From the UHGV virus genome UHGV-1564085: DNA of 16,355 nucleotides; one strand, written 5' to 3'. Made by a program: the position numbers and the translations under genes. Below the pieces are notes generated by a model that was not told the DNA's origin, did not search any database, and saw nothing but the letters and a program-made list of their open reading frames with translations. The stretch's first letter is position 1; each line of letters starts with the position of its first letter. Positions 1-15,391 of the stretch are shown here, piece after piece. The stretch is from a virus.

Positions 1-36
1 TACATAAAAAGTCAGATAAAAATATTATCTCGTCAA

Positions 37-342
37 GTGATGAAAAAAAACCTGGCGGAGATGAAAGACTTGATAGATAAAAAAGAATTGGATTTTAATG
101 TAATTCTGCAGGAGATGAAAAATCAGGCCGGAGAAGAAAAAGAAGACATCAAAAACATTACAAAAATGCAGGCTGCAGGTGAGACTTTAATTAAATTTAT
201 TCAATCATTTGACCCGGACTCAACGGGACCAATTATAATTGGTAAAGATATGGATGACAAAAATATAAATGACAACGATCTAATTAACGAAGATATTATT
301 AAGTTCATTTATGTCCTATTAGGTACTGAGTTAGAAAAATAA
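37..342 (+). CDS. Hypothetical Lys/Asp/Glu-rich protein in a very AT-rich stretch; frame is open back to position 1, so it may be 5'-truncated by the window. Probably host flank upstream of dusA.
   Basis: ORF track 37..342; no in-frame stop between position 1 and the ATG at 37; followed by an intrinsic terminator at 383..412; base composition much more AT-rich than the prophage body. Confidence 0.4.
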   Translation: MMKKNLAEMKDLIDKKELDFNVILQEMKNQAGEEKEDIKNITKMQAAGETLIKFIQSFDPDSTGPIIIGKDMDDKNINDNDLINEDIIKFIYVLLGTELEK

Positions 343-382
343 AATGTGAATTTTCCCTATAGCATGGAAGTTTTTACATAAA

Positions 383-412
383 AGAACCCAATATTGATTG
401 GGTTCTTTTTTC
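383..412 (+). terminator. Rho-independent terminator after the 37..342 ORF
   Basis: 10-bp stem agaacccaat (383..392) pairs with attgggttct (397..406), 4-nt loop, T-run 406..412. Confidence 0.6.
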
Positions 413-703
413 TCTATCAGTGCTATTAGCAGGGAGAGATATCACCGTAGTTTAATGTGTGATTTTTATTTATCGTCGAACCTGGATTGTTTATCATTGG
501 CCTTAACAAAGCTAACGGCTAATAAGATTATTTCCATCACTTCGTGAGAGCTTCATGCCTTGAGAGGATCTCAATTTTCTTTTGCAATGAGACAGGCGCT
601 TCCTGTTGTTATGGTATAGTACCCCGCTATTGAGCCTCCTGAACAGTGATGCTGAATAACATAACCCCATGATATATCGATAAAATAATCTCTACATTTG
701 AAA

Positions 704-826
704 ATGCACGGTAATTCTGAAATGCAAAAAATCAACCAAACCAGCGCAATGCCTGAAAAAACTGACGTTCACTGGAGTGGTCGGTTTAGCGTTGCACCAA
801 TGCTCGATAGGATGTACCGTTTTTGA
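704..826 (+). pseudogene. dusA: Truncated 5' fragment of tRNA-dihydrouridine synthase A (dusA'), the displaced native 5' end left at a dusA-targeted integration junction
   Basis: Translation from ATG 704 gives MHGNSEMQKINQTSAMPEKTDVHWSGRFSVAPMLD, which I recognise as the DusA N-terminus including the conserved SVAPML motif; it diverges after codon 35 (808) into RMYRF-stop at 824..826. Confidence 0.6.
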
Positions 827-1061
827 AAAACAACTAGTTATACACTTTGTGGGAGCCTATTGGGAACCTGTTATTCTTAGAAAGCATCATTTGCTCATCA
901 CTTCAATTGACCATGGTTAAAGCCAGCTATAAACTTGACAAACGAGGTAACTGGTTGCTTAGGCCCAAGTGGGCACACCATAAGAAGCTCGTGTTGGTGA
1001 TGAAGCAACCCATGAAGTATCGAGAATAATTATAAAGTTCACTATCTTTGAGGTTTCTTAT

Positions 1062-1634
1062 ATGTTTTGCGAAGAAAAAGTAGCTCAAATGGCTGCATAC
1101 CTACTTCTTAAGCGAGGTGGGCGCATGGCATATCTGAAATTGATGAAGTTGCTCTATCTGTCTAACCGCCAGTCGATTTTGAAGCATGGCAGGATGATCG
1201 GCGAAGATAGCCTTTACTCTATGAAATTTGGACCAGTCATGTCGAATACGCTGAACTTGATTCGCGGTAAGGCTGAAGGCATTGGTGACTACTGGTACAA
1301 CTTGATAGAGACGAACGGGCATAATGTATCGTTGCGTTCAGATCCGAGGGAAATGGATGCAGACGAGGTCTTTGATGAATTGAGTCGTGCAGATATCCGG
1401 ATTTTAGATGAAATCTATTCTCGGTATGGGCATATGAACCGATTTGATCTCGCAAATATGACGCATTTAGAAAGCGTTTGTCCAGAGTGGCACGATCCTG
1501 GCAATTCTCGTAAGCCTATAGACCTGAAAGAAATGCTGATCAGTGAGGGTAAAAGCGAGGATGAGGCTAATCGCATAATTGGCAAAATGGAAGAATCTCA
1601 GAAACTTAAGGAATTTTCTTTGCAATTATCATGA
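1062..1634 (+). CDS. Panacea-domain (DUF4065, SocA/GepA-like) protein, putative antitoxin or immunity component
   Basis: ORF track 190 aa; N-terminal motifs AAYLLL, KLMKLLYL and GPV match the remembered DUF4065 signature; GAGG Shine-Dalgarno 9 nt upstream; stop overlaps the next start by 4 bp. Confidence 0.5.
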   Translation: MFCEEKVAQMAAYLLLKRGGRMAYLKLMKLLYLSNRQSILKHGRMIGEDSLYSMKFGPVMSNTLNLIRGKAEGIGDYWYNLIETNGHNVSLRSDPREMDADEVFDELSRADIRILDEIYSRYGHMNRFDLANMTHLESVCPEWHDPGNSRKPIDLKEMLISEGKSEDEANRIIGKMEESQKLKEFSLQLS

Positions 1635-2050
1635 CGGATTATCAGCCATACAGGAAAGGAACTGTGCTTGCCCCAACTGGGCCATGCAATCATCTTCATG
1701 TGATTTGTAATGATCCTGTTTATTACCCCGTTAACGATTGTTATTGTGTTTTAGTTGTTAATATTTCTAGTATCAAGGATGGTGTCCCCCACGATCCGTC
1801 TTGCGTCTTGAATTCTGGTGATCATCGCTTTATCAAGCATCCAAGTTATGTTGTTTACGCTGAAGCTATAATTTGGCGAGTGGATAACATGGTTAGAAAG
1901 CAGCGATCGGGTGAGATTTCTGTTCATGATGATATGCCAGAAGCTACATTCAATAGAATTCTGGACGGTTTTGATATCTCTGATGAAGTTACGCCAAAGA
2001 ACCTTAAATTTAAAAATAAATATTGCGTATCATCTATTGATGATGAGTAA
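1631..2050 (+). CDS. Uncharacterised 139-aa protein coupled to the Panacea-domain gene; candidate toxin or effector partner
   Basis: ORF track 139 aa; ATGA start/stop overlap with the upstream gene (1631..1634); no family recognised from sequence. Confidence 0.5.
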   Translation: MTDYQPYRKGTVLAPTGPCNHLHVICNDPVYYPVNDCYCVLVVNISSIKDGVPHDPSCVLNSGDHRFIKHPSYVVYAEAIIWRVDNMVRKQRSGEISVHDDMPEATFNRILDGFDISDEVTPKNLKFKNKYCVSSIDDE

Positions 2051-2089
2051 ACAACAGGAATTGTTTCGGTATAACTTCAGGAGTTTTCT

Positions 2090-2263
2090 ATGGAAGATCA
2101 AAAAGCAACCAAGCCACAGGTTAAGTTCGACACAATGAAAGCATTCGCAGGTATGGGTGCTGCTGTTGAAGTTCTGATGAAGGCTGCTCCTAATGCGTTC
2201 ACTCACGCTACTGTCTCTGGTAAAGAGCAGCAGGGTAAGCTTCGTCGTCGCAAAGCAGCATGA
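2090..2263 (+). CDS. Small hypothetical protein (57 aa) not in the ORF track
   Basis: Hand translation: MEDQKATKPQVKFDTMKAFAGMGAAVEVLMKAAPNAFTHATVSGKEQQGKLRRRKAA, stop TGA 2261..2263; AGGAG 6 nt upstream of the ATG; intrinsic terminator immediately downstream. Confidence 0.45.
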   Translation: MEDQKATKPQVKFDTMKAFAGMGAAVEVLMKAAPNAFTHATVSGKEQQGKLRRRKAA

Positions 2264-2286
2264 TCATAGCTGGTGCTTTTTGAAAA

Positions 2287-2308
2287 CCCGCCTTTAGGCG
2301 GGTTTTTT
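2287..2308. terminator. Bidirectional rho-independent terminator between the plus-strand cargo genes and the minus-strand excisionase-like gene
   Basis: cccgcc (2287..2292), loop ttta, ggcggg (2297..2302); T-run 2303..2308 on plus strand and A-run 2283..2286 (T-run on minus strand). Confidence 0.7.
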
Positions 2309-2310
2309 AT

Positions 2311-2592
2311 TTAGTGATGTTCTTTGCCCTTCTGTTTGCTTGTTCTGACCTGTTCCCACTCGATACGTCCTTCTTCTCGTCTTTTGTCTATGTATTCCGC
2401 AAGATCCTGAATATTGATGCAACGTTTTGCTTTTTGTGATGTGCCGATGCGATATGTTGGAACGGGCAACTTACAAGCGTTTGCTTTTGCTTCTGCCGTG
2501 GCTGGACTCATGCCAAAGTACTTTTGGCTAACTGCTGAGAGTTCAATGTTAGGGGTATTGAATTCAGCCATCAGTAAAAACAAGGTGTTCAT
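2311..2592 (-). CDS. Excisionase-like small DNA-binding protein (PrtN/AlpA-type family)
   Basis: ORF track 2311..2619 begins at a GTG; the ATG at 2592 has GGAG 6 nt upstream and gives a start MNTLFLLMAEF typical of this family as I remember it; sits at the end of the early-left operon. Confidence 0.5.
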   Translation of the reverse strand: MNTLFLLMAEFNTPNIELSAVSQKYFGMSPATAEAKANACKLPVPTYRIGTSQKAKRCINIQDLAEYIDKRREEGRIEWEQVRTSKQKGKEHH

Positions 2593-2628
2593 AATTTTCT
2601 CCATCAAAACCGGCTGCACCCGGGAAAA

Positions 2629-3201
2629 TCATAATTCTGTGCTGGTGGCAGGAATTAATTTCTGCCAGATAGCGGAAACATATTTTGCCTGATGACGGGC
2701 ATCAGCCAGGGCGTTGTGCCGTTCGCCATCGAAAGGCATGTCCATTTTGGGGTCGAATCCGATGGAACGCCCAAGCGTAACGATCGTGCGTACATCGTGG
2801 TCATTCCAGTATGCCCACGGGCAGATTTGTCCTGCTCGCTCATAAGCTCCACGTAAAATTACGTTGTCGAAGGTGGCTCCGTTACCCCAGACTTTTAAAT
2901 ATTTCGTATTGTCTGCGTGCCGGTTAATGAAATGATTTAGTTCTGAGAGAGCATCGCTGATCGACAAAGTATCATCAATACAGATTGCAGCTCGTGCTTC
3001 AGGGCTTTGTTTCAACCACCACAGGATGGTATCGCCGTCAGGTGTAGCTCCTTGCCCCATAGCACTTTCCAGGCTAACAACCGTATAGAATTCTTGTCCG
3101 ATGTCTCCGGTTTCTGGAGTGAAGAACACCGCGCCAATGGAAACGATCGGTGCATCCTTATTTTTCCCCATCGTCTCAAGGTCGATCATTAAGTTGTTCA
3201 T
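2629..3201 (-). CDS. DEDDh (DnaQ-like) 3'-5' exonuclease
   Basis: ORF track 191 aa; motifs DLET near the N-terminus and HNALADA near the C-terminus fit Exo I and Exo III of DEDDh nucleases; real start likely the ATG at 3201 with GAGGTG upstream, overlapping the upstream stop. Confidence 0.6.
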   Translation of the reverse strand: MNNLMIDLETMGKNKDAPIVSIGAVFFTPETGDIGQEFYTVVSLESAMGQGATPDGDTILWWLKQSPEARAAICIDDTLSISDALSELNHFINRHADNTKYLKVWGNGATFDNVILRGAYERAGQICPWAYWNDHDVRTIVTLGRSIGFDPKMDMPFDGERHNALADARHQAKYVSAIWQKLIPATSTEL

Positions 3202-4010
3202 CACTTCACCTCTTGTGATGGTTTTGCTGCAAAATACTCGATACCTTTATCCCAGATAGATTTTATGGTCGACCACGTGACTGGCACTTTAATTTCAATA
3301 CGTCCGCTCCCGTCACAGGTATCGCAATCATCATCGCCAAAGCATTCCAGGCAGCTTATAAACGTAGTTTCTGAAAATTCACCGGATAGCGCCCCCTTAG
3401 CGCCGTTCTCGGCTGTTAGTCTCTTCGGCACCATAACCCAACCATCCGGAGTTACCGGAGAGTTGCCAGACAGTGCGTTCTGCAATCGTTCCAGCTTAAC
3501 GTATTCCTGAACCCTGTTTCCGTCGCACGCCTGAAGCCATTGCACAGCCTTTTGCGCATCAGTGTGAAAGGCACAAGTGCGACCGTCATCAAATTGCATT
3601 TCGTAGAGGTCAGCAACCTGTTTAAACTGCGTTTGTGGCAACTTGTAAGCCTGGCTTGCAGGTACGGCACCATAGAGCATGGCAGCGCGGCAGGCGTTCC
3701 AGCCTTCATCAAAACCGACTATGCCATTATTTAAAGACGGACGAGCATCTGGCACCACCGGCACTGGCTTGGCTATATATAGCGGCTGAACATACCAGCC
3801 CTTTGATAACCAACTGTCAGCAATGTTTTTACTCCTGGTTATTGCCGGAATACCTAAGCCATTGTCTGAATGCAGCCATGCCACCGGATCCTCTTCCAGC
3901 GATGCCAGAGCAATTTCATAAGCACGGCGCTCAACATTGTCTCGCACGTCCATGCTGCTGATTCGTTCTTTGATTTCTTTAATCAGTTCTTTATCGGTAA
4001 ATGTGGTCAT
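3201..4010 (-). CDS. Hypothetical phage early protein (269 aa) with a C-terminal Cys/Asp-rich stretch
   Basis: ORF track; translationally coupled at both ends (1-nt overlaps); no family recognised. Confidence 0.5.
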   Translation of the reverse strand: MTTFTDKELIKEIKERISSMDVRDNVERRAYEIALASLEEDPVAWLHSDNGLGIPAITRSKNIADSWLSKGWYVQPLYIAKPVPVVPDARPSLNNGIVGFDEGWNACRAAMLYGAVPASQAYKLPQTQFKQVADLYEMQFDDGRTCAFHTDAQKAVQWLQACDGNRVQEYVKLERLQNALSGNSPVTPDGWVMVPKRLTAENGAKGALSGEFSETTFISCLECFGDDDCDTCDGSGRIEIKVPVTWSTIKSIWDKGIEYFAAKPSQEVK

Positions 4011-4372
4011 TATGCTCCAGCCTCCGGTGCTTTTGGCATTACTGCCCAGTGAGTGATGTTGACGTTTTCAAGGTCCCCGACCTGAAATGTCCACTGCCAT
4101 TCTCCGGTTTCTTTTTGCCCCCATGTATACCAGAGAGAACGCCAGCCAATCAGCCAGCCTTCTCCATTAGCATCAAATAACAGAACACTTTCATTCGCTG
4201 GCGGCAGTTCAGCTGACACTGGTATTACTTTGTTTTCCAGTGCTGCACATTTAGCTTCAAGCGCATCAAATTTACGCACCAGGTATTCAGCATCCGTTTC
4301 ATTCACTTTCAGATCTCGCGGTACACATTTCCCGCGAAGAAATCCTTCCATTTCGAAAACATTCATGCGCAT
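4010..4372 (-). CDS. Hypothetical phage protein (120 aa), Trp-rich C-terminus, YfdS/DUF551-like
   Basis: ORF track; ATG at 4370..4372 confirmed by hand; size and position match yfdS of prophage CPS-53 as I recall it. Confidence 0.5.
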   Translation of the reverse strand: MRMNVFEMEGFLRGKCVPRDLKVNETDAEYLVRKFDALEAKCAALENKVIPVSAELPPANESVLLFDANGEGWLIGWRSLWYTWGQKETGEWQWTFQVGDLENVNITHWAVMPKAPEAGA

Positions 4373-4899
4373 TTTCGTAACTCCGATAATTCGTTAAAGC
4401 GTTCCATAAACATCCCGTAGGCATGGCCTGGAGCCAGTGGAATCACGTTGAACATCTCTGTTGCCGGGATACCTTCCAGTACAGGCCAGAAAGAGCCATC
4501 ATCAAGCCCGAGATCGCGGCGTTCGGTTGCCAGCATGATGAGATCGGCATATTTCACGGGTGTACTCATAACCGGGGGTAACCCGTATTTCTCACGGATT
4601 ACTGTGTCTATTTTTTCTTCCATCCGTTTATAGTCAGGAAGAAAGCGTTTCAGTGGTGCGGGGATGTCCTGGCAATACGCTTCTGTTGCATCATGCATTA
4701 ACGCTTCAAAAGCAAATTCCTGCGGCACCAACTGGCTGCAAAGAACCGCATGTTGGGCGACGCTGTAGAAGTGCGAAAGATGACCGGCAAAGCGACAGAT
4801 ATTTGAAAGGGAAACCGCGATATCGTTAATATCGATGTCGTCTTTATTTATCCTGTCATAATAAAAATGCTTCCCAGAAAAAGTTTTGATAAATGACAT
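4363..4899 (-). CDS. HD-domain phosphohydrolase, YfdR-like putative 5'-deoxynucleotidase
   Basis: Contains H...HD metal-binding motifs (AQHAV, MHDATEAY); the ATG at 4899 with GGAG 6 nt upstream gives 178 aa (track ORF starts at an upstream GTG, 4926). Confidence 0.6.
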   Translation of the reverse strand: MSFIKTFSGKHFYYDRINKDDIDINDIAVSLSNICRFAGHLSHFYSVAQHAVLCSQLVPQEFAFEALMHDATEAYCQDIPAPLKRFLPDYKRMEEKIDTVIREKYGLPPVMSTPVKYADLIMLATERRDLGLDDGSFWPVLEGIPATEMFNVIPLAPGHAYGMFMERFNELSELRKCA

Positions 4900-5026
4900 T
4901 TTGTTCTCCACGTATATGCGCTGCACCGCGCTGAATTCTGGTAAAAAGAATCCCTCACCATCCGGCGATTATTGAGTAAATTACGTTTCCATAAATGCCC
5001 CCGCAGGGGCATTTGCAGTAATGAAA

Positions 5027-5851
5027 TCAGGCGGTGAAAGTACCAATAAAGGTTTCTACTTTGCTGTCCTTGAATTTCTCAACAAGCAGATCACGAAATT
5101 CGTTAGCCATTTCTTCCTGCACCGCCTCCAGCTGAATAATGCGCAGAACCAGTACAGGACGATCGCCAGTGATAATGCTGAGGCGTAATTTAAACGGACG
5201 TTCTTTCAGACCTTCAAACGGAACGCATTTAAATTCAAATGCCACTGGCATAATGTCTTTGGTCTTCGCTTCGACAGACTCCATCAGGGAGCGTTTGCCG
5301 CTGAAGTCATTGTCTTCAAAATCAGCGGTCTGGTTCGCTTCAATTGTGATTTTACGGATCGCCGCAGCCGCTTTGGTTGCCTGAATGGCGTCACCATTAG
5401 CATCAAAGCCCACAAGGTAGTCGGCCCAGTCTTCAATCCATTCTGCCAGTGACTTCTGGGAGTTACGCTCGCCATTAACAGACAACAGAGCAGAGAACGG
5501 TGCTGTCTTTTTCAGTTTGAGAGTGGCGGTGTTATCTGCGTGACCTGGTTCATCAATAGTACCCAGGTTAAGCACACTGACTGCTCGCATATTATCGGCA
5601 TCGATAAAGCAGCGGGTGCCTTCATCTGCAAGATCTTTAGAATAACGGGTAAAGTCATCGATGCTGGCAGTGGAAAGCGCACCACGGAAACGGAAGCGAT
5701 TTAAATTAAATTTTTCCAGATCATGAATGCGGAAATTCTCAGGCAATGCCACAGCATCGGCACCAATATTATTGATAATTTCATTAACACCCTGAGCAGA
5801 AATAAGGGCATGGATTTGATTAATTGCGGTTGCGTCTAAGTTCTGAGACAT
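5027..5851 (-). CDS. YfdQ-like (DUF2303) prophage early protein, 274 aa
   Basis: ORF track; GTGAGGA Shine-Dalgarno upstream; size and neighbourhood match yfdQ of CPS-53 (from memory). Confidence 0.5.
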
Positions 5852-5916
5852 AATAAGTCCTCACTATATAAAGATATTCAGTGATGAGATAAATAATCGG
5901 TTAATTAAGAACGATA

Positions 5917-6279
5917 TTAATGACCTGCTGCGCGGAGTTTTCCGTCAGGTTCACCGGCAAGAGTCAGTAATTGTCCCTGGTCTTCCTGCAGAATAGTCAG
6001 GCGACCACCGCGATTGACATACATCGGCGTTTCGGTGGTGTCTTCTTCGGAAATTTTCCCGCGGTTAGTCGGGCGAACATATGAGAGTTTGTGTTTGATT
6101 TTCACACGGTTCTCATCAAATGGTTCGATTTCCAGGTTGAGTGAGACCTTACCTTTGGTTTTCGTGTTCATCACACCGGAAGCGACTTCACTGAGAACTG
6201 CGCCGATTTTGGTTTCAAATACGCCGCCGTCCAGCTCCCCGATAAATGCCTGCACATCAGTACTGCGTTCGCTAGCCAT
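5917..6279 (-). CDS. Hypothetical prophage early protein (120 aa), YfdP-like
   Basis: Track ORF extends to 6597 but its N-terminal 106 codons are Arg/Pro/Cys-rich and unprotein-like; the ATG at 6279 has GAGGAG 8 nt upstream and yields MASERSTDVQAF... Confidence 0.5.
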   Translation of the reverse strand: MASERSTDVQAFIGELDGGVFETKIGAVLSEVASGVMNTKTKGKVSLNLEIEPFDENRVKIKHKLSYVRPTNRGKISEEDTTETPMYVNRGGRLTILQEDQGQLLTLAGEPDGKLRAAGH

Positions 6280-6327
6280 TTTGCTGCTCCTCATCATATC
6301 GACCCTGCAAGGTCGGTTGGTTTCTCC

Positions 6328-6416
6328 ACAAAACAGAGAAGAACACCTGCGGTGGCAGCCGCCCGGATGGATTGGGTTATGAGCCCGTCGTCCGGTGATG
6401 CTCTTCTCTGTTTTGT
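6328..6416. repeat. Long inverted repeat (15-bp perfect stem acaaaacagagaaga / tcttctctgttttgt, ~59-nt loop) in a 436-bp non-coding region
   Basis: Arms at 6328..6342 and 6402..6416 read directly from the sequence; loop is GC-rich with internal short palindromes. Confidence 0.5.
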
Positions 6417-6716
6417 AAAAAGGACGGTACCAGCCTGAAGCAAGGGTACAAACTGGTACCGCCAGGACTACACACAGCATAAAGTTGTGGTGCCGGGTGC
6501 CTCCCGGTGCCTGGCGAAGGTTGCACACCAGACGGGTGGGTATCCACAGAAGGTCGACTGTCAGCCTCAACCTTAACCCGCGTGCGCTGAGCCGCATTCA
6601 CCACAACGCTAAGGATTCTCTTTGGTTGAAAATACTTAGCTGTTATGTGCCTGTCTTTTCACCACTTCAGGCTCGGTGGTATCCTTTTAAGCCCGTATAC
6701 ATAAAAGGAAAATCAA

Positions 6717-6962
6717 ATGACTTTTGATGAAAAAGAACTTGATAATGCAATTAATAAAATCATCGTAACGTCGCTCTTTTCCTGTCTCAGCGACACTCAG
6801 CAGAAACAGTTCTACGAATCGGCTTTCAACATGATCGAGCGTTGTTGTTTCTGCGATGCCGACGAGTTACCTGAAAAAATCAGGAAACAGTTGGCTGATG
6901 CTCTTCGAGTGCGACTTTCTGACCAATTTTCTGAAATGTACTCTCCGAATTTGGACAAATAG
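6717..6962 (+). CDS. Hypothetical 81-aa protein transcribed antisense to the pL operon; possible lysogen-expressed moron
   Basis: ORF track; AAGGA Shine-Dalgarno 9 nt upstream; protein-like composition; 3' end overlaps the convergent minus-strand ORF. Confidence 0.4.
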   Translation: MTFDEKELDNAINKIIVTSLFSCLSDTQQKQFYESAFNMIERCCFCDADELPEKIRKQLADALRVRLSDQFSEMYSPNLDK

Positions 6963-7155
6963 AAAAAGGCCATTTCCATTCAGGGTCTGATGGAAATACT
7001 TCAGCCTGTTCCAAAGCACGGCGTAAAGAGAACACAACTCCAGCCATAATCTGATGTTTCCCATTGGTCCAGCTATCGCCGCTCTGATCTACAGGGGCGG
7101 CTATGTCGTATGACCAAACGACTTCACAGTTATTGTTTAAAATCTGGACTTTCAT
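6880..7155 (-). CDS. Hypothetical 91-aa protein, first gene downstream of pL (N-equivalent position, but not Arg-rich)
   Basis: ORF track; GGAGG about 12 nt upstream of the ATG at 7153..7155; its last 83 bp overlap the 6717..6962 ORF and contain a hairpin with T-run (6963..6997). Confidence 0.4.
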   Translation of the reverse strand: MKVQILNNNCEVVWSYDIAAPVDQSGDSWTNGKHQIMAGVVFSLRRALEQAEVFPSDPEWKWPFSICPNSESTFQKIGQKVALEEHQPTVS

Positions 7156-7272
7156 TTTGTTCTTTAACCTCCAGATACGGGCGTTTAATTGCCCCGCCGA
7201 ACAGCTCTTTTCCGCAATAGCTGCAATGTCTTTCGCGAATCAGCCTGCGCATTCACCACAACTCTAAAAACA

Positions 7273-7302
7273 AATGTAGGATATCCAACATGCAAGTGTC
7301 AA
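7273..7302 (-). promoter_or_regulatory. pL-like early leftward promoter
   Basis: On the minus strand TTGACA (plus 7297..7302), 18-bp spacer, TACATT (plus 7273..7278); same architecture and near-identical sequence to pR. Confidence 0.55.
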
Positions 7303-7326
7303 GAGTTTATGTTGGTTATCCTACAT
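7274..7326. promoter_or_regulatory. OL operator sites: two 18-bp near-palindromes (7274..7291 and 7309..7326)
   Basis: atgtaggatatccaacat and atgttggttatcctacat; the first is the exact reverse complement of the OR site at 8089..8106. Confidence 0.55.
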
Positions 7327-7341
7327 GAAAAGATAGGCTCA

Positions 7342-7365
7342 TAAAAAAACCGGGGATACCCCGGT
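7342..7365 (-). terminator. Rho-independent terminator downstream of the cI-like gene
   Basis: accgggg (7349..7355) pairs with ccccggt (7359..7365); A-run 7342..7348 on plus strand gives the T-run on the minus strand. Confidence 0.6.
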
Positions 7366-7388
7366 TTTGCGATAGTGAGGAAGATGTG

Positions 7389-8042
7389 TCAAAAATCCAT
7401 TATTACTTGTTTGACAAGACCAACTATTCTGCAGTTCTCACCGCATTCAATAGTTTTATAGTTAGGATTTAGTGGGACGAGATACCTGTTCGGCCAGTCC
7501 TCAACAAATTTTTTGAGTGTCGCTTCTTGCCCACCATTGATATGGGCAACAACGATTTTTCCGTTAATACACTCTGTATCAATAATATCTGGCTCTACGA
7601 TAACGATAGAACCTTCTGGTATCGATGGTGAGCCGAGGGGATTGGTCATTGAATCACCACGGACCCGTAGTGCAAATGCCATTTCTGATACAAGGGCGGT
7701 AGTATAAACCCACTCTTCAGCATCTTCTTTCCTGACACCAGGCTCCGTCATTGTCCATGAACCCGCCTGAACCCACGAGATGAGGGGGACTTTTTTAACT
7801 GCGAATATTTCAGGTTTTAGATTTATCTTTGGTTCAGGCGAGCCTTTTCCGCTAACAAGCCACAGAGGATCGCATTTAAGTGCGTTGGCTAGGGCTTGAA
7901 GGTTGGCTCCATTTGGTTGGTAGTCGTCCTTTTCCCATCCAGTAACCGTGACACGGTTCACACCAGTCAAATCAGCCAGTGCTTGTTGTGTCAGGTTCAG
8001 TTCTTTTCGCCTTTGGCGAATACGATCACTCATGTTCATCAT
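7389..8042 (-). CDS. CI-like prophage repressor (N-terminal XRE-type HTH, C-terminal S24 LexA-like autopeptidase)
   Basis: ORF track 217 aa; HTH segment LTQQALADLTGVNRVTV; Ala-Gly cleavage context VQAGSW; catalytic GDSM serine and a downstream lysine; divergent from the cro-like gene with operators between. Confidence 0.8.
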   Translation of the reverse strand: MMNMSDRIRQRRKELNLTQQALADLTGVNRVTVTGWEKDDYQPNGANLQALANALKCDPLWLVSGKGSPEPKINLKPEIFAVKKVPLISWVQAGSWTMTEPGVRKEDAEEWVYTTALVSEMAFALRVRGDSMTNPLGSPSIPEGSIVIVEPDIIDTECINGKIVVAHINGGQEATLKKFVEDWPNRYLVPLNPNYKTIECGENCRIVGLVKQVIMDF

Positions 8043-8106
8043 GTAGGCAATCCTACCACATGCCCATGTAGGATTCTTGACATTGGCATGTTGGATATCC
8101 TACATT
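8041..8106. promoter_or_regulatory. OR operator cluster (8041..8058, 8066..8083, 8089..8106) with pR (-35 TTGACA 8077..8082, -10 TACATT 8101..8106)
   Basis: Three related 18-bp sites spaced 25 and 23 bp centre to centre, overlapping pR -10, pR -35 and the cI start respectively, as in lambda OR1-OR3. Confidence 0.6.
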
Positions 8107-8137
8107 TCTGCTTAACGTAATTTAACGGGAGACAGAA

Positions 8138-8335
8138 ATGCGGAAATCCGACGTGATTAATTATTTCGGCGGAGTTTGTAAAACCGCCGAAGCCCTAGGT
8201 ATTAAGCATCCGTCTGTTTCAGAGTGGCCTGAGATTATTCCTGAAGGCCGAGCGTACCAGTTAGAAAAAATTACTAACGGGAAACTGAAAGTTGACGTGT
8301 CTTTATATCAAAAGACTAACAGTGCTGCGGCATAA
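8138..8335 (+). CDS. Cro-like small HTH protein (YdaS-type family)
   Basis: ORF track 65 aa; GGGAGA Shine-Dalgarno 5 nt upstream; first gene downstream of pR; motif YFGG..KTAEALGI...VSEW typical of Cro/YdaS-like proteins. Confidence 0.6.
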   Translation: MRKSDVINYFGGVCKTAEALGIKHPSVSEWPEIIPEGRAYQLEKITNGKLKVDVSLYQKTNSAAA

Positions 8336-8362
8336 AAACACCACAGAAATGAGGAATTAACC

Positions 8363-8947
8363 GTGGGTAAAGAACCTGAATGGAAAGTTGATAAACAACC
8401 AGCATGGCTGGTGGCAGCAATACGAAGAACGATTGCTGATTTACCTCATGGCTATGAGGAAGCAGCAGAAATTCTTGGTTTGTATAAATCTGATGATATC
8501 ACCCCAGCAAAAGATCAATTGCATAACAGACTGCGTAGCGGTGGGGATCAAATTTTTCCACTTGAGTGGGCCATGGTTTTACAGGATGCCAGTGGTACCA
8601 GGCATGTAACAGATGCAATAGCCCGTCGTAGTAATGGGGTGTTTGTGCCGCTGGTGGTCATTGATGACATTGACAATGGTGACATTAATCAGCGGCTGAT
8701 GGAGTCAATAGAATGGATTGGCAAGCATTCCCAGTACTTACGCAAGGCAACTGCTGATGGAGTTATTGACCAGGCTGAGCGTGAGCAAATCGAAGAGAAC
8801 AGCTACCAAGTAATGGCGAAGTGGCAGGAGCATTTAACACTGTTATTTCGTGTTTTTTGTGCGCCGGAAAAGAGTAACGCCCGCGAGTGTGCAGCTCCGG
8901 GCGTCGTGGCGTCGATTGCTTCTGGTTGTGGAGAAACTAACGCATGA
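8363..8947 (+). CDS. CII-like regulator (YdaT-type family)
   Basis: ORF track 194 aa, GTG start with GAGGAA 6 nt upstream; position immediately after cro; family assignment from memory. Confidence 0.5.
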
Positions 8948-9282
8948 ACAGTTTAACAACACACTACCGTCGCTCGCAACTGATTGCACTTCCTGTACCG
9001 GGTGGAAAAGCGAAGGTGGAGTATTGCTATGCAGTGAATGTACCAGGTGACAGGGAAATTGTAACCCACAGCTTTGCAGAGTGGGCTGTGGGTGATTTCA
9101 ACCGGCAGAAGGAGACAGTCCTTTGCGACAAGTTAACCGCTGGTTCAAAGATCACTACGGAGTGCCCGTCAGAGTCATTCGTTGGGAGCCGGAAACACAA
9201 CGGGTTATCTACCTCCGTGAAGGCTATGAACATGAATGCTTCAGTCCGGTCGAACAGTTTCGTCGTAAATTCAGGGAAATAG
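8944..9282 (+). CDS. Hypothetical ORF coupled to the CII-like gene; only the N-terminal ~60 aa look protein-like
   Basis: ATGA overlap with the upstream stop; C-terminal part overlaps the 9123..9335 ORF in another frame and is low-complexity. Confidence 0.3.
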
Positions 9283-9335
9283 AGGTCGGTCATGAGCCTG
9301 TTAATGACATCCCAGCCCATTGTGATAAATCGTGA
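9123..9335 (+). CDS. Hypothetical 70-aa protein with TTG start
   Basis: AGGAG (9110..9114) 8 nt upstream of TTG at 9123; frame opens after a stop at 9093..9095; protein-like composition. Confidence 0.35.
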
Positions 9336-10284
9336 TCTTGCATGCCGTATTGGTCTGAATGAGGCAATTGTGTTGCAGCAGCTTCATTACTGGCTGAATG
9401 AAACGAATTCAGGCACTGAGCATGGCGGAATTCGCTGGGTTTATAACACGACAGAACAGTGGCTGGAGCAGTTTCCGTTCTGGTCAGAGTCCACTCTGAA
9501 ACGCACATTTGCAAGCCTGAAATCACTTGGGGTTTTGCGTCGCGAGCAACTCAATAAATCGAAGCGTGACATGACCAACTTCTACACGATCAACTATGAA
9601 AGTGAGCTTTTAGAAGAGGTCAAAGTGAACGAATCCATCAGGTCAAAATGCACTTCTCCATCTGGTCAAAGTGACCTGATGGATGGGCGCAAAATGACAC
9701 GATCCATTGGTTCAAAACGACACGCTGTCATCGGGTCAAAATGGCCCAATGATCTTACAGAGAATACAACAGAGATTACTACAGAGAATAAAACCTCTTC
9801 TCGTCCGGACGCTTCGCAACCGGACACGCAAACGGCTGAACAGGAGTTTTTAACTCGCCATCCTGATGCGGTTGTATTCAGCCCTAAAAAGCGCCAGTGG
9901 GGAACGCAGGATGATTTGACCTGCGCACAGTGGCTCTGGAAAAAAATCATCGCCCTGTACGAGCAAGCCGCCGAATGTGACGGCGAGGTGGTTCGTCCCA
10001 AAGAACCGAACTGGACAGCCTGGGCAAACGAAATTCGCCTGATGTGTGTGCAGGATGGTCGTACTCACAAACAAATCTGCGAGATGTACAGCCGCGTCAG
10101 CCGCGATCCGTTCTGGTGCCGTAACGTGCTCAGCCCGTCGAAGCTGCGGGAAAAATGGGATGAGCTTTCCCTGCGCTTATCGCCGTCCGTAAGCACGTAC
10201 ACCGAAAAACGCGAAGACCCGTACTTCAAATCCAGTTACGACAACGTGGACTACAGCCAGATCCCGGCAGGATTCAGGGGGTGA
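9292..10284 (+). CDS. Replication initiation protein, lambda O-like organiser with an internal origin and a DnaT-like C-terminal region
   Basis: ORF track 330 aa; N-terminal HTH-like segment; iterons and an AT-rich tract inside the gene (9616..9800), as for lambda ori within O. Confidence 0.6.
   Translation: MSLLMTSQPIVINRDLACRIGLNEAIVLQQLHYWLNETNSGTEHGGIRWVYNTTEQWLEQFPFWSESTLKRTFASLKSLGVLRREQLNKSKRDMTNFYTINYESELLEEVKVNESIRSKCTSPSGQSDLMDGRKMTRSIGSKRHAVIGSKWPNDLTENTTEITTENKTSSRPDASQPDTQTAEQEFLTRHPDAVVFSPKKRQWGTQDDLTCAQWLWKKIIALYEQAAECDGEVVRPKEPNWTAWANEIRLMCVQDGRTHKQICEMYSRVSRDPFWCRNVLSPSKLREKWDELSLRLSPSVSTYTEKREDPYFKSSYDNVDYSQIPAGFRG
9616..9800. repeat. Putative phage origin: about six iterons of GGTCAAA(A/G)TG at ~23-bp period (9618, 9641, 9664, degenerate 9687, 9710, 9734) followed by an AT-rich tract with ACAGAGA repeats
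   Basis: Direct repeats read from the sequence inside the O-like gene. Confidence 0.6.
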
Positions 10285-10775
10285 TCATGAGTCTGTTAAA
10301 TGACGTTCAGAAATTCATTGAAGCCCATCCGGGGTGTACTTCCGGAGACATTGCGGATGCTTTTGCAGGTTACTCACGGCAGCGCGTTCTGCAGTCAGCA
10401 AGCAAGTTACGTCAGAGTGGGCGTGTGGCTCACCGTTGTGAAGGAGATACACGCAGACATTTCCCACGCCTGACTGAGAGAGCGCAGGAGCCGGAACCAC
10501 AACCAGTTCGTGAAACCAGACCTGTGCGCAATTTCTATGTCGGCACTAACGATCCCCGGGTGATTTTGTGCCTGACCCGCCAGGCGGAAGAATTGGAGTC
10601 CAGGGGCTTATACCGTCGTGCTGCAACGGTGTGGATGGCGGCATTCCGTGAAAGCCACTCCCAGCCAGAACGAAACAATTTTCTGGCGCGTCGTGAGCAG
10701 TGTTTACGGAAAAGCAGCAAGCGCGCTGTATCGGGTGATGAGTGGTATCTGTCAGGGAATTACGTGGGGGCTTAA
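10281..10775 (+). CDS. Hypothetical protein with a C-terminal PerC-like motif (LESRGLYRRAATVWMAA)
   Basis: ORF track 164 aa; start overlaps the O-like stop; motif resembles the PerC/Pch family as I recall it. Confidence 0.4.
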   Translation: MIMSLLNDVQKFIEAHPGCTSGDIADAFAGYSRQRVLQSASKLRQSGRVAHRCEGDTRRHFPRLTERAQEPEPQPVRETRPVRNFYVGTNDPRVILCLTRQAEELESRGLYRRAATVWMAAFRESHSQPERNNFLARREQCLRKSSKRAVSGDEWYLSGNYVGA

Positions 10776-11428
10776 TGAGTAATAAATATTGCCAGGAGCT
10801 GGTGGAACTGCGGAACAAACCAGCCCATGAACTGAAGGAAGTGGGTGATCAGTGGCGCACGCCGGACAACATTTTCTGGGGAATTAACACCCTGTTTGGC
10901 CCGTTTGTTCTGGATCTGTTCACTGACGGTGATAACGCCAAATGTGCTGCGTATTACACGGCGGAAGACAACGCGCTGGCGCATGACTGGTCAGAACGTC
11001 TTGCGGAGCTTAAAGGGGCTGCCTTTGGTAATCCCCCATACAGCCGCGCCAGTCAGCATGAGGGGCAATACATCACCGGCATGCGTTACATCATGAAACA
11101 TGCCAGTGCCATGCGTGATAAGGGTGGGCGCTATGTTTTCCTGATCAAAGCTGCCACCAGCGAAGTGTGGTGGCCGGAAGATGCGGACCATATTGCTTTT
11201 ATTCGCGGGCGTATTGGTTTTGAACTGCCTGCCTGGTTTATCCCGAAGGATGAGAAGCAGGTGCCGACAGGCGCTTTCTTCGCTGGTGCTATTGCTGTTT
11301 TCGATAAGACCTGGAAGGGACCGGCAATCAGCTACATCGGGCGCGATGAACTTGAGGCATGTGGTGAGGCGTTTCTGGCGCAGGTTCGCCAGCAGGCGGA
11401 AAAACTGGTCAGGGAGATGGCGGCATGA
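10775..11428 (+). CDS. Phage Dam-family DNA N6-adenine methyltransferase
   Basis: NPPY catalytic motif (GNPPYSR); the ATG at 10775 overlaps the upstream TAA and follows a G-rich Shine-Dalgarno (track ORF starts earlier at 10742). Confidence 0.65.
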   Translation: MSNKYCQELVELRNKPAHELKEVGDQWRTPDNIFWGINTLFGPFVLDLFTDGDNAKCAAYYTAEDNALAHDWSERLAELKGAAFGNPPYSRASQHEGQYITGMRYIMKHASAMRDKGGRYVFLIKAATSEVWWPEDADHIAFIRGRIGFELPAWFIPKDEKQVPTGAFFAGAIAVFDKTWKGPAISYIGRDELEACGEAFLAQVRQQAEKLVREMAA

Positions 11429-11751
11429 CGACGTTAACTCAATGCCAGCAGCAGGTGCTGGATATGCTGATTTCTTATCAGAAAGAACGTGGTTTCCCGC
11501 CAACCAATCAGGAGGTGGCAACCATGCTGGGATACCGTTCAGTGAATGCAGCGGTGGAGCATCTTCGCGCACTGGAGAAAAAAGGCGTCATCACGATAAA
11601 GCGTGGTGTGGCCCGGGGGATAACGCTTCATACCGCGGTGAAGGACGACGACAGCGAGGCAGTCGGGATTATCCGCGCACTGCTTGCCGGTGAGGAAAAC
11701 GCAAGGCTGCGTGCAACCCACTGGTTACATGAGAGGGACCTGAAAGTATGA
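11425..11751 (+). CDS. LexA N-terminal DNA-binding-domain homologue lacking the S24 peptidase domain
   Basis: MTTLTQCQQQVLDMLISYQKERGFPPTNQEVATMLGYRSVNAAVEHLRALEKKGVI closely parallels the E. coli LexA N-terminus (as I recall it); only 108 aa with no Ala-Gly site or Ser/Lys dyad. Confidence 0.6.
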   Translation: MTTLTQCQQQVLDMLISYQKERGFPPTNQEVATMLGYRSVNAAVEHLRALEKKGVITIKRGVARGITLHTAVKDDDSEAVGIIRALLAGEENARLRATHWLHERDLKV

Positions 11752-12137
11752 AGCTGATCCTGCCTTTTCCGCCCAGCGTGAACACGTACTGGCGACACCC
11801 CAACAAAGGGGCGTTTGCTGGTAAGAGCCTGATAAGCGCGGCGGGGCGAAAATTCCAGAGCGCGGCGTGCGCAGCAATAGTTGAGCAGTTACGTCGTCTG
11901 CCGAAACCAACGTCGGCACCTGCTTCAGTGGAGATCGTGTTGTTTCCTCCGGATAACCGGATCCGCGATCTGGACAACTATAACAAGGCGCTGTTTGACG
12001 CCCTGACCCACGCGGGTGTGTGGGAAGACGACAGTCAGGTGAAAAGAATGCTGGTGGAGTGGGGACCGGTTATCCCGGAAGGGAAGGTCGAGATCACTAT
12101 CAGTAAGTACGAGAAAACGGCGGGTGCAGCCGCCTGA
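11748..12137 (+). CDS. rusA: RusA Holliday junction resolvase
   Basis: ORF track 129 aa; RusA-type N-terminus (LPFPPSVNTYWRH) and catalytic Asp cluster (RIRDLDNYNKALFDALT); ATGA overlap with the upstream gene. Confidence 0.8.
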   Translation: MKLILPFPPSVNTYWRHPNKGAFAGKSLISAAGRKFQSAACAAIVEQLRRLPKPTSAPASVEIVLFPPDNRIRDLDNYNKALFDALTHAGVWEDDSQVKRMLVEWGPVIPEGKVEITISKYEKTAGAAA

Positions 12138-12156
12138 TCAAGAGGAGAAACGAAGT

Positions 12157-12966
12157 ATGAATAATCTGATGGTCATTGATGGTATTGAAGTTCGTCGTGA
12201 TGCTTATGGGCGTTACAGCCTGAACGATCTGCATCGCGCAGCAGTAGCATCTGGTGCAAATGCCAGAACCAAGGAGCCGGGGAAGTTTCTTTCCAGCCAA
12301 CAAACTGTTGAGCTTGTTCATGAATTGACCAACACCCAGAATTTGGGTGTTGACCCGGTGAGTGTGATTCATGGGGGAAATGAACGGGGAACTTATGTCT
12401 GCAAGGAACTGGTGTATGCCTATGCAATGTGGATCAGCCCGTCATTCCATCTGAAGGTGATCCGTACTTTCGATATGGTAACCAGCGCACCGGAAAAATT
12501 ATCCGGGCAGGCTGCTGACAAGATGCAGGCTGGTGTGATTCTGCTGGACTTTATGCGCCGGGAGTTAAACCTGTCTAACTCTTCAGTGCTTGGTGCCTGT
12601 CAGAAACTCCAGGAGGCTGTTGGCTTACCGAATCTGGCACCGCGCTATGCCATTGATGCTCCTGCTGATGCACACGATGGCTCAAGTCGCCCGACACTGT
12701 CACTGAGTGCACTGCTGAAACAGTATGGTATCCGCCTGACGGCTAATCAGGCATATCACCAGATGGTGAAGCTGGGGATCGTCGAGCAGCGCGAACGATA
12801 CAGCCGTACCGCGATTAACAACATCAAAAAATTCTGGTCGCTGACAGCGAAAGGCTGCATGTTCGGCAAGAACATCACCAGTCCCGCAAATCCGCGCGAG
12901 ACGCAGCCGCACTTCTTCGAATCCCGATTCCCTGAGCTGTTAAAGCTGCTCGATACCGTTCATTGA
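12157..12966 (+). CDS. KilA-N domain protein (antirepressor or Bro-like)
   Basis: The ATG at 12157 has AGAGGAG upstream (track ORF starts at 12124); N-terminal region looks like a KilA-N fold from memory. Confidence 0.5.
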   Translation: MNNLMVIDGIEVRRDAYGRYSLNDLHRAAVASGANARTKEPGKFLSSQQTVELVHELTNTQNLGVDPVSVIHGGNERGTYVCKELVYAYAMWISPSFHLKVIRTFDMVTSAPEKLSGQAADKMQAGVILLDFMRRELNLSNSSVLGACQKLQEAVGLPNLAPRYAIDAPADAHDGSSRPTLSLSALLKQYGIRLTANQAYHQMVKLGIVEQRERYSRTAINNIKKFWSLTAKGCMFGKNITSPANPRETQPHFFESRFPELLKLLDTVH

Positions 12967-12967
12967 G

Positions 12968-13963
12968 GTGACTGTGAGAGCACTACTGACCCCTGAAATT
13001 GCCCCGCGTATGGGGATCGTATTGTTCAGACCAGGTTCAGAGCTGATGCCCCTGTTTATGCAGGGGCGTGTCCTGCTGGAGCCTGAGCCGGAACGTTATT
13101 CATCTTTCGCCAGTGGTGCCGTTCCGGCGGCATCACAACCACTGGCGGATGATCCTGCCATTCGGGCCGTGTTCCGCAATGAGGCTGTGATCCGTCGTGC
13201 TGGTGGCGTGGAATGTCTTGAAAGCTGGTTACTTCGTGAAAAAGGCTGCCAGTGGCCTCATTCCGACTGGCACAGCGAGAACATGACCACAATGCGACAC
13301 GCGCCTGGCGCAATCCGTCTGTGCTGGCACTGTGATAACCAGCTGCGCGAGCAGTTCACGGAACGGCTGGAATCAATGGCAACGGATAACTGTGCCCGCT
13401 GGGTGTTATCTGTTGTGCGCCGTGATCTCGGTTTTGATGATAGTCACGTTGTGACAATGCCGGAACTGTGCTGGTGGCTGGTTCGTAATGACCTGGCTGA
13501 TGCCTTACCGGAAAGTGCAGCCCGTAAGGCACTGAGATTACCGAAGCCTGTTGTGCCGTCTGTCACCCGGGAAAGTGACCTTGTGCCTTCGGTTCCTGCC
13601 ACCAGCATCATCCAGGATAAGGCGAAAAAGGTGCTGGCGCTGAAAGTGGATCCGGAGTCGCCGGAGTCTTTTATGTTACGCCCAAAACGTCGCCGCTGGG
13701 TTAATGAAAAGTACACGCGCTGGGTTAAGACACAGCCGTGTGCATGTTGTGGAAAGCCTGCTGATGATCCCCATCACCTGATAGGCCACGGTCAGGGTGG
13801 AATGGGTACAAAAGCGCATGACCTCTTTGTGTTGCCTTTGTGCAGAAAGCATCACGACGAGCTGCATGCGGATACCGTGGCATTTGAAGAGATGTATGGT
13901 TCCCAGCTGGAGCTGATATTTCGTTTTATCGATCGTGCGCTGGCAATAGGCGTACTGGCGTAA
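12968..13963 (+). CDS. DUF968-like nin-region protein with a C-terminal Cys/His (HNH-like) motif
   Basis: ORF track 331 aa, GTG start (exact start uncertain); C-terminal CACCGKP...HHLIGHG...CRKHHDELH. Confidence 0.5.
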   Translation: MTVRALLTPEIAPRMGIVLFRPGSELMPLFMQGRVLLEPEPERYSSFASGAVPAASQPLADDPAIRAVFRNEAVIRRAGGVECLESWLLREKGCQWPHSDWHSENMTTMRHAPGAIRLCWHCDNQLREQFTERLESMATDNCARWVLSVVRRDLGFDDSHVVTMPELCWWLVRNDLADALPESAARKALRLPKPVVPSVTRESDLVPSVPATSIIQDKAKKVLALKVDPESPESFMLRPKRRRWVNEKYTRWVKTQPCACCGKPADDPHHLIGHGQGGMGTKAHDLFVLPLCRKHHDELHADTVAFEEMYGSQLELIFRFIDRALAIGVLA

Positions 13964-13976
13964 GTGGAGAACGAGC

Positions 13977-14729
13977 ATGAACCTTGAAGCCTTACCAAAA
14001 TATTACTCCCCAAAATCTCCAAAATTGAGCGATGACGCACCGGCGACAGGCTCAGGTGGTTTAACGATTACGGATGTGATGGCTGCGCAGGGGATGGTGC
14101 AGTCGAAAGCACCGCTTGGGTTTGCCTTATTCCTGGCAAAAGTTGGTGTTCAGGATCCTCAATTTGCGATTGAAGGTCTGCTCAATTACGCGATGGCACT
14201 GGATAACCCGACATTGAACAAATTGAGTGAAGAAACCCGGTTACAGATCATCCCTTACCTTGTGAATTTTGCCTTTGCTGATTATTCCAGGTCTGCGGCA
14301 AGTAAGGCTCGCTGTGAGCATTGTGCTGGTACTGGATTTCATAATGTATTGCGCGAAGTGGTGAAACACTCCAGAAGCGGGGAATCTGTTATCAAGGAAG
14401 AGTGGGTGAAGGAACTATGTCAGCATTGTCATGGTAAGGGAGAAGTCAGCACAGCGTGCAGAGGGTGTAAGGGTAAAGGTATTGTCCTGGATGAAAAAAG
14501 GACCCGGCTTCATGGCACGCCTGTTTATAAGATTTGTGGGCGTTGCAATGGAAATCGGTTTAGCCGTTTACCAACCACACTGGCGCGGCATCATGTCCAG
14601 AAGCTGGTACCAGACCTGACGGATTATCAGTGGTACAAAGGATATGCAGATGTCATTGATAAACTGGTGACAAAGTGCTGGCAGGAAGAAGCATATGCTG
14701 AGGCGCAATTAAGAAAAGTGACGAGATAA
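13977..14729 (+). CDS. Q: Late antiterminator, lambda Q family (longer than lambda Q)
   Basis: Shared motifs with lambda Q as I recall it: SPKSP, TDVMAA, ADYSRSAA, C..C.GTG zinc motif, CGRC.G; lies directly upstream of a pR'-like promoter and the lysis genes. Confidence 0.65.
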   Translation: MNLEALPKYYSPKSPKLSDDAPATGSGGLTITDVMAAQGMVQSKAPLGFALFLAKVGVQDPQFAIEGLLNYAMALDNPTLNKLSEETRLQIIPYLVNFAFADYSRSAASKARCEHCAGTGFHNVLREVVKHSRSGESVIKEEWVKELCQHCHGKGEVSTACRGCKGKGIVLDEKRTRLHGTPVYKICGRCNGNRFSRLPTTLARHHVQKLVPDLTDYQWYKGYADVIDKLVTKCWQEEAYAEAQLRKVTR

Positions 14730-14760
14730 ATGATTTTCGCCGAAGATGGCGACATGATTC

Positions 14761-14789
14761 TTGCATTTTTCAAAAAATTTGGTTAGGAT
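14761..14789 (+). promoter_or_regulatory. pR'-like late promoter with Q-utilisation region
   Basis: TTGCAT (14761..14766), 17-bp spacer, TAGGAT (14784..14789); downstream AACGATGGG matches the start of the lambda pR' transcript as I remember it. Confidence 0.5.
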
Positions 14790-14836
14790 TCTCCTAACGA
14801 TGGGCTTTGTGTGTCTACCGTTGATAATCTTCAAGA

Positions 14837-14858
14837 AACCGCCACCGAGCGGTTTTTT
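14837..14858 (+). terminator. tR'-like intrinsic terminator ending a ~60-nt leader RNA from pR'
   Basis: aaccgc (14837..14842), 6-nt loop, gcggtt (14849..14854), T-run 14853..14858. Confidence 0.6.
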
Positions 14859-15260: not shown

Positions 15261-15279
15261 CTCAATGAATTATAAAAAG

Positions 15280-15304: not shown

Positions 15305-15391
15305 GTGCACTACGCAACTTTTGCGACTCAGCGCTATAACCAGCTTCTTTCCCTTCACTCGTTGCACTTCCGATAACCGGAGGTGGGAATT

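Follow-up and report, generated by a model that had tools for sequence, protein, structure and literature searches.

The DNA at positions 704..826 is almost certainly the integrase-distal junction of an SfV/mEp460-like temperate phage that integrated, by means of a tyrosine recombinase, in the 5' end of the host dusA gene. A preliminary description of the window (the whole stretch of 16,355 nucleotides analyzed here) had already proposed that it holds the integrase-distal junction, and both a reconstruction of the attB x attP exchange and the location of the integrase gene at the other prophage end bear this out. The junction is a textbook case of a described system, an identical junction has been catalogued, and as such it is already known; the covariation of candidate arm sites and the cargo slot presented below are the sole points that might perhaps be new.

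The left part of the window contains the following features.

37..342, plus strand: 3' end of a host DUF2713 (yjbM-like) gene (Pfam DUF2713, E=9e-9; annotated as DUF2713 family protein in near-identical genomes)
380..409, plus strand: terminator-like hairpin 3' of the DUF2713 gene (13-pair stem followed by a T-run; pattern scan, a consensus match only)
410..703, plus strand: native dusA upstream region, with the presumed promoter, at a putative position, now stranded before the truncated gene
704..807, plus strand: displaced native dusA 5' end (codons 1-34 and two bases of codon 35; 104/104 bases identical to K-12)
704..826, plus strand: chimeric 40-codon ORF (35 dusA codons, five phage codons encoding RMYRF, and a stop codon)
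800..807, no strand: crossover block ATGCTCGA, the sole stretch common to attB, attP and the two junctions
808..16355, no strand: left part of the SfV/mEp460-like prophage (annotation of near-identical genomes and phage matches)

The order of the DUF2713 gene and dusA is that of yjbM-dusA in K-12, the former being the usual upstream neighbor of dusA. The GC content is 0.336 in 1..703 versus 0.483 in 808..16355, and the left flank is AT-rich host DNA; the earlier view of an AT-rich, non-phage flank to the left and phage-like sequence to the right thus agrees with the base composition, with the host DUF2713 gene on the left and with the prophage at 808..16355. A pattern scan of the region upstream of dusA yielded one weak promoter-like match, at 503..531. 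On the phage side, the genes of 808..16355 follow the order P' arm, cargo cassette, rdfN, early genes, immunity, replication, Q antiterminator and lysis genes. A minus-strand block comprises a PrtN-family gene, a 3'-5' exonuclease gene and yfdP/Q/R-like early genes, and beyond the early genes lie a LexA-family (CI-like) repressor gene, cro, replication genes and genes for a DNA methylase, RusA, an antiterminator, a holin and a lysozyme. The nearest named phages are SKA5 (98.3% identity over 79% of 808..16355), mEp460 and SfV. A scan of the whole window with Rfam at gathering thresholds returned no RNA family. In a near-identical prophage, NCBI annotates a frameshifted hypothetical gene at 6294..6604 (minus strand), which is the sole decay visible in the early region.

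The chimeric ORF runs from an ATG at 704 to a TGA at 824..826 and encodes MHGNSEMQKINQTSAMPEKTDVHWSGRFSVAPMLDRMYRF, although the program-made ORF list has it start at a TTG at 698, two codons further upstream. Its product consists of MHGNSEMQKINQTSAMPEKTDVHWSGRFSVAPMLD followed by RMYRF, the last five codons and the stop being phage sequence. When 704..826 was aligned to dusA, positions 704..807 matched nucleotides 1..104 of the K-12 MG1655 gene (b4049) at 104/104 bases, so that the DusA N-terminus recognized in the preliminary description, its divergence and its stop five codons further on are all found as reported. The 200 bases ending at 799, just 5' of the core, match K-12 at 199 positions, and together with the dusA match this excludes chance. 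The likeness to the chromosome ends after 807: the next 112 bases agree with K-12 at 35/112 positions and with phage attP at 111/112. The prophage boundary is settable to the base, at 807/808. In agreement with this, NCBI annotates 704..808 in near-identical genomes as a partial tRNA-dihydrouridine synthase pseudogene that lacks the C-terminus.

A four-way comparison revealed that crossing K-12 attB with the attP of the free phage SKA5 reproduces both junctions of the prophage. In SKA5, the contiguous attP region has the order int, a 40-codon dusA look-alike (MHDNHETQKINQTSVMPEKTGVYWNSRFSIAPMLDRMYRF, then a stop codon) and the sequence of the window from 808 onwards. The four arms compare as follows.

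Window junction, left arm against attB: 199/200
Window junction, right arm against attP: 111/112
Far junction, left arm against attP: 199/200
Far junction, right arm against attB: 112/112

Parent-specific bases at 799 and 808 bound the block ATGCTCGA at 800..807, and the parent switches exactly there; this is the direct-repeat core that had been expected around 790..810. The junction falls after dusA nucleotide 104, within the codons of APMLD. All 18 differences between host and phage in the 104-nucleotide homology sort by one parent per junction up to the 8-bp block, which argues for strand exchange inside the block and against homologous recombination. In attP the block is framed by the perfect inverted repeat TCCTA|TGCTCGA|TAGGA, and the likely overlap, judged from this symmetry, is the 7-bp TGCTCGA at 801..807, which would be flanked by core-type inverted repeats. 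The semi-conserved repeats of about 21 bp read ATGCTCGATAGGATGTA at the window junction and ATGCTCGACTGGACGGA at the far junction, with the 8-bp block exact and partial likeness beyond it.

Phage Lys8385Vzw was also considered as attP reference and was rejected, since it carries the 8-bp core twice in tandem, a likely artefact; SKA5 and mEp460 were used instead. The tandem double core, ATGCTCGAATGCTCGA, lies at 3957..3972 of MT225100.1, a record labeled complete genome, and suggests that the circle was assembled from the joined ends of a prophage while both cores were retained, so that the record has 8 bp in excess at attP.

The far end of the prophage was read in two complete genomes, WP4-S18-ESBL-09 and MS14385, which are 99.7% identical to the whole window and neither of which is its source genome; in the complete-genome collection the best five genomes are 99.6-99.7% identical over the whole window, and none reaches 100%. 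In these two near-identical genomes, the core recurs at a distance of 37,647 bp. At this second core, a gene encoding a tyrosine integrase (WP_000332264.1, 365 residues) is divergently oriented to an intact 345-codon dusA and located about 88 bp upstream of it, with pspG-qorA-dnaB after dusA as in K-12. Hence, the integrase and the intact dusA that had been anticipated beyond the right end of the prophage were both found at the position of the second core, and dusA does not continue intact in the window, where likeness to K-12 stops at 807. The first 35 codons of the rebuilt gene are supplied by the phage; 26/35 residues and 86/104 bases agree with the native end. From there on, all 310 residues equal those of K-12 DusA. 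The rebuilt protein is recognized by the Pfam Dus model and scores 560 bits with the NCBIfam DusA equivalog, for which the cut-off is 269. Simple consensus scans of the int-dusA spacer gave no sigma-70-like promoter. By analogy with the mobilizable element IMEVchUSA3 (PMC8409611), the rebuilt dusA is presumably expressed. Beside int at this end, outside the window (L002 17461..19121), DinI-like and acyltransferase-family genes lie on the strand opposite to that of the tail genes; the acyltransferase gene might serve lysogenic conversion by O-antigen modification, as in SfV-type phages.

The following course of integration very probably produced both ends. The phage attP brings its own 35-codon imitation of the dusA start, ending in the same ATGCTCGA (the Met-Leu-Asp codons of the conserved APMLD), and Int exchanged strands within 800..807, with TGCTCGA as the likely overlap. 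The host promoter and the first 104 bases of dusA stayed at the window junction, fused to the phage P' arm in a dead 40-codon ORF, and about 37.6 kb away the phage dusA start joined the rest of dusA in frame, beside int. Because this start is in frame at the far end, the cell should keep a full-length DusA with an altered N-terminus, that is, the lysogenic host would retain a DusA whose N-terminus is written by the phage. Excision would give an attP with ...CCTATGCTCGATAGGA... and an attB with ...CCAATGCTCGACTGGA.... Int and RdfN (see below) are presumably active in this particular prophage.

Three other explanations of the dusA fragment were weighed. The one that survives best, though we regard it as unlikely, is that the prophage integrated as described and is now defective, which would make the fragment a permanent scar. 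Decay is indeed annotated in the near-identical prophage (the frameshifted gene at 6294..6604 and a capsid-gene fragment near int), the excision frequencies given for dusA islands by Farrugia 2015 (PMC4482086) are very low, below 1e-7, and 10.8-kb 'phage remnants' in the dusA of O157:H7 are listed in Table S1 of that paper. However, the element is full length (37,647 bp vs 37,572 bp in the free phage SKA5) and has complete sets of head, tail, lysis and immunity genes in addition to int and rdfN, its att arms match the free-phage attP at 199/200 and 111/112 positions, and its integrase keeps the catalytic residues R222, H306, R309, H332 and Y342.

Very improbable, in our judgment, is a second explanation, in which the ORF at 704..826 is a functional small-protein gene under selection and served by the native dusA promoter. 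The ORF keeps the native promoter region, the ribosome-binding context and the start codon, it is present in 663 genomes, and the free phage has a parallel 40-codon dusA' ORF with the same C-terminal RMYRF; the tail ...APMLDRMYRF closes the phage-borne dusA' ORF, before its stop codon, in the attP of both SKA5 and mEp460. Nevertheless, the sequence of the ORF is wholly accounted for as a by-product of recombination, the ORF has no Pfam or PHROG match, and NCBI calls it a pseudogene. Moreover, the tail of the dusA' ORF varies by lineage, with GTY in Yersinia phage YeP1, GSYTL in phage EKP1 and WFY in Salinivibrio phage SMHB1, each before a stop codon, as expected of an unselected read-out into the P' arm. 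For annotation, the 40-codon ORF is thus best treated as a recombination scar and not as a gene. The last explanation, RecA-dependent homologous recombination between dusA and the phage dusA look-alike without the integrase, we consider extremely improbable: the partners do share a stretch of about 107 bp at 83% identity, but homologous crossovers would scatter along the homology and be poor at such identity, whereas here all 18 differences are single-parent per junction with the switch in the terminal 8-bp block, strain ETEC H10407 has the same end point, and a core has been mapped for phage 1720a-02, which has an identical integrase (PMC6328086).

Integration by the phage integrase, the preferred reading, agrees with the published record. 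Farrugia 2015 (Nucleic Acids Res, PMC4482086) described integrases that hit one site in the dusA 5' end, with the element providing a new dusA 5' end and the native 5' end being rejoined only on excision, and semi-conserved direct repeats of about 21 bp flanking the elements. The general scheme assumed at the outset, i.e. an integrase family directed at the dusA 5' end, a replacement end next to the integrase and a displaced native fragment at the other end, matches that account. The elements of that study have the same site, the replacement end by int, the displaced native end, the repeats and a prtN homologue, and nothing essential differs here. Their Table S1 lists eight E. coli elements, including one of ETEC H10407 at 4684277..4723914, and in our alignment the island start at 4684277 corresponds to window position 807, the final A of the core. 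The same Panacea protein adjoins the junction in H10407, the cargo of which differs slightly by an extra CoiA gene in the cassette.

A second close parallel is phage 1720a-02 (Stx2dact; Balasubramanian 2019, PLoS Pathog, PMC6328086), for which integration about 100 bp into dusA was shown by sequencing. That sequencing-based study reported a 21-bp motif and a seven-base core, although the core given in its text is not alignable base for base with our 8-bp identity block; its phage dusA' ORF restores the reading frame, and attP is regenerated in vivo. Phage 1720a-02 is lambdoid and Stx2-converting, has 47 kb and was studied in Citrobacter rodentium, whereas the prophage described here is a 37.6-kb SfV/mEp460-like element without stx in the part seen. 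As PMC6328086 calls the int-proximal junction attL, the window junction is its attR. The system also resembles that of lambda Int and attP in the predicted three-domain Int, the short overlap with inverted core sites and the repeated words on both arms, but it differs in that attP lies between the gene for the recombination directionality factor (RDF) and int, not downstream of int, in that the phage integrates within a protein-coding gene, which it repairs, and in the sequence family of the integrase (Rci-type cd00796 noted for mEp460).

The junction type is common among E. coli genomes. A 120-base probe centered on the junction, required to be covered to at least 80%, detected it in 663 of 5,426 complete genomes (about 12%), and a phage-type dusA start at no less than 95% identity is present in about 800 records. 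The whole first 1,100 bases are common to only 38 genomes, and at least 80% of the window is found in 7. A K-12 attB probe for counting occupied sites proved ambiguous, the phage-type 5' end aligning to it at about 92-93% over its full length, and was discarded; the dependable count is that of the junction-centered probe. The short dusA pseudogene is a reliable marker of an occupied dusA site.

In the window, an excisionase-like gene is found with no integrase next to it, which the preliminary description explained by the position of the junction. The gene and the cassette that separates it from the junction are as follows.

1062..1634, plus strand: Panacea (SocA-like antitoxin) domain gene, first of the cassette (PF13274, E=2e-19, 70.9 bits vs a cut-off of 25.7; annotated Panacea domain-containing)
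1631..2050, plus strand: 139-codon ORF with a 4-base overlap with the Panacea gene (PHROG 19071, function unknown)
2090..2263, plus strand: 57-codon phage ORF, last of the plus-strand cassette (PHROG 2741, E=8e-36; also in mEp460 and strain SOI121)
2282..2307, plus strand: strong terminator-like hairpin closing the cassette (11-pair stem with 6 GC pairs, then a T-run)
2311..2619, minus strand: PrtN-family gene, candidate RdfN-type recombination directionality factor (NCBI annotates a shorter 2311..2592)

The product of 2311..2619 matches Pfam PyocinActivator (PF11112, E=4e-23, 81.8 bits vs a cut-off of 24.2) and PHROG 1300 'excisionase' (E=8e-40). A prtN homologue had been noticed in 60 of 94 dusA islands, its role then being open (Farrugia 2015, PMC4482086), and the PrtN homologue RdfN was later shown for IMEVchUSA3 to be the RDF required for the excision of dusA elements, int and rdfN lying on opposite sides of attP (Rivard 2021, PMC8409611). 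Because of this arrangement, the two genes come to lie at opposite prophage ends after integration. In agreement with this, the attP regions of free phages read int - attP - (cargo) - prtN-like gene, and int shares its strand with the prtN-like gene. The explanation by an integrase-distal junction thus holds, the excisionase-like gene being of the PrtN/RdfN family and located across attP from int, and it had already been published. The likeness to IMEVchUSA3 lies in a small PrtN-family gene across attP from int, which is int-distal once the element is integrated (PMC8409611). However, IMEVchUSA3 is an SGI1-like mobilizable island whose rdfN is switched on by the activator of an IncC plasmid (PMC8409611), whereas the rdfN of the window stands at the end of the early-left operon of the phage, following the exonuclease gene, and is presumably controlled by the phage repressor. 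The signals that drive rdfN in prophage-type elements were left open by Rivard 2021 (PMC8409611).

The P' arm carries two direct repeats on the plus strand, GGGAGCC at 851..857 and GGGAACC at 862..868, which are 11 bp apart. On the P arm, between int and the start of dusA' (far end, L002 ~16215..16300), the word is present three times, once inverted as GGTTCCC and twice directly as GGGAACC. In the 16.4-kb window as a whole, exact GGGAACC/GGTTCCC is found at only two places. Five other lineages have a different word that is nevertheless the same on both arms of each attP, with positions conserved in the closer lineages.

Yersinia phage YeP1: repeated word GGGGTGCT
Phage EKP1: repeated word GGTGTACT
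Salinivibrio phage SMHB1: repeated word GGGAGACT
Burkholderia phage BcepIL02: repeated word CGTAGCA
Pseudoalteromonas phage C5a: a looser version of a repeated word

The exact arrangement of one inverted and two direct 7-mers was found in 15 of 55 int-dusA spacers vs none of 5,500 shuffles, and imperfect versions of the triple are visible in most of the remaining spacers. The pattern suggests that the repeats are likely arm-type binding sites of a heterobivalent Int, sites for RdfN being an alternative reading of them. Since both arms of one attP share the word and the lineages differ in it, site and protein appear to co-evolve. A search of a literature library with few subscription journals retrieved no paper describing arm sites for dusA integrases. 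If confirmed, the covariation of the arm sites would allow a simple prediction of cognate integrase-attP pairs among dusA elements.

A candidate reader of these repeats is seen in the AlphaFold model (mean pLDDT 82) of an integrase with 99% identity. The model has an N-terminal unit of three strands and a helix at residues 2-58, which is followed by core-binding and catalytic domains, so that three domains are predicted, and in a Foldseek search full-length lambda Int aligned to it over 366-369 columns. Pfam recognized no family in integrase residues 1-110, the N-terminal fold being that of the AlphaFold model alone. Judging from this model, the lambda-like N-terminal beta-beta-beta-alpha domain of the dusA integrases would be the likely reader of the repeats.

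The contents of the slot between the junction and rdfN vary: H10407 adds the CoiA gene, mEp460 and strain SOI121 have a different 177-codon gene, and YeP1 and EKP1 are empty. The Panacea family has been described (PMC8832971). From the gene arrangement, the 139-codon ORF at 1631..2050 is a candidate for the cognate toxin, and searches of Pfam, NCBIfam, PADLOC and PDB sequences gave no match for it. In the E. coli variants examined, the cargo has the orientation of the truncated dusA, as does the first gene beyond attP in phage C5a. A pattern scan detected no terminator between 826 and 1062, and one weak promoter-like match at 907..935. Because the cargo is co-oriented and no terminator was detected in this interval, read-through from the native dusA promoter into the cargo is possible, the promoter and terminator scans themselves neither favoring nor excluding read-through or a phage-supplied dusA promoter. 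If the host promoter were captured in this way, the cargo would be expressed in lysogens from the dusA promoter of the host. That the repeats, as arm-type sites, and a cargo slot driven by the host promoter are undescribed parts of the dusA integration system is a tentative proposal, which we hold to be possible though somewhat doubtful.

The integrase belongs to a widespread family. It matches Pfam Phage_integrase (E=1e-20) and is 100% identical to the integrase of phage 1720a-02 over 364 residues. Of the R-H-R-H tetrad and the nucleophilic Tyr of tyrosine recombinases, R222, H306, H332 and Y342 do not vary among 25 aligned relatives; R309, present here, is kept in at least 90% of them. Among relatives with 53-99% identity, a full dusA lies divergent, 67-175 bp upstream, at 55 of 75 informative loci, namely those with enough upstream sequence, from many gammaproteobacterial genera, in Enterobacterales, Vibrionales, Alteromonadales and others. 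Phage homologues down to 34-37% identity (BcepIL02) have a dusA' ORF beside int. An integrase-alignment scan of viral contigs gave 80 matches, all almost identical E. coli copies without diversity, and the diversity of the integrase was taken from the annotated phage collection instead. For the mEp460 integrase (98% identical), the note of the depositors cites the INT_Rci domain cd00796, and the annotation of one phage homologue reads shufflon-specific recombinase; the family of dusA integrases was placed next to Rci by Farrugia 2015 (PMC4482086).

At twenty loci of integrase relatives (53-66% identity; Xenorhabdus, Serratia, Providencia and Raoultella for the most part), dusA is absent from the 2.5 kb upstream, and these relatives apparently target other sites; dusB, dusC and non-dus targets were noted for relatives by Farrugia 2015 (PMC4482086). 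On the 205-kb APEC plasmid pEND_Eco 18005 (NZ_CP126947.1), a prophage with the same integrase type and a dusA' start is present at 2771..5862. Its dusA' ORF continues into a ParB/RepB/Spo0J gene that is truncated and has the opposite strand, the phage sequence ending after ...CCTATGC, and the arrangement looks like an off-target integration at a secondary site or a later rearrangement there. Finally, Elizabethkingia phage EKP1 (OM284015.1, region 100..360), whose integrase is 67% identical, has an enterobacterial-type dusA' start, and the repeats on its att arms are nearly the same as those next to the dusA of Klebsiella sp. WOUb02. The dusA' start and the arm repeats make a Bacteroidota host doubtful, and the true host of EKP1 is probably a Klebsiella-like enterobacterium.
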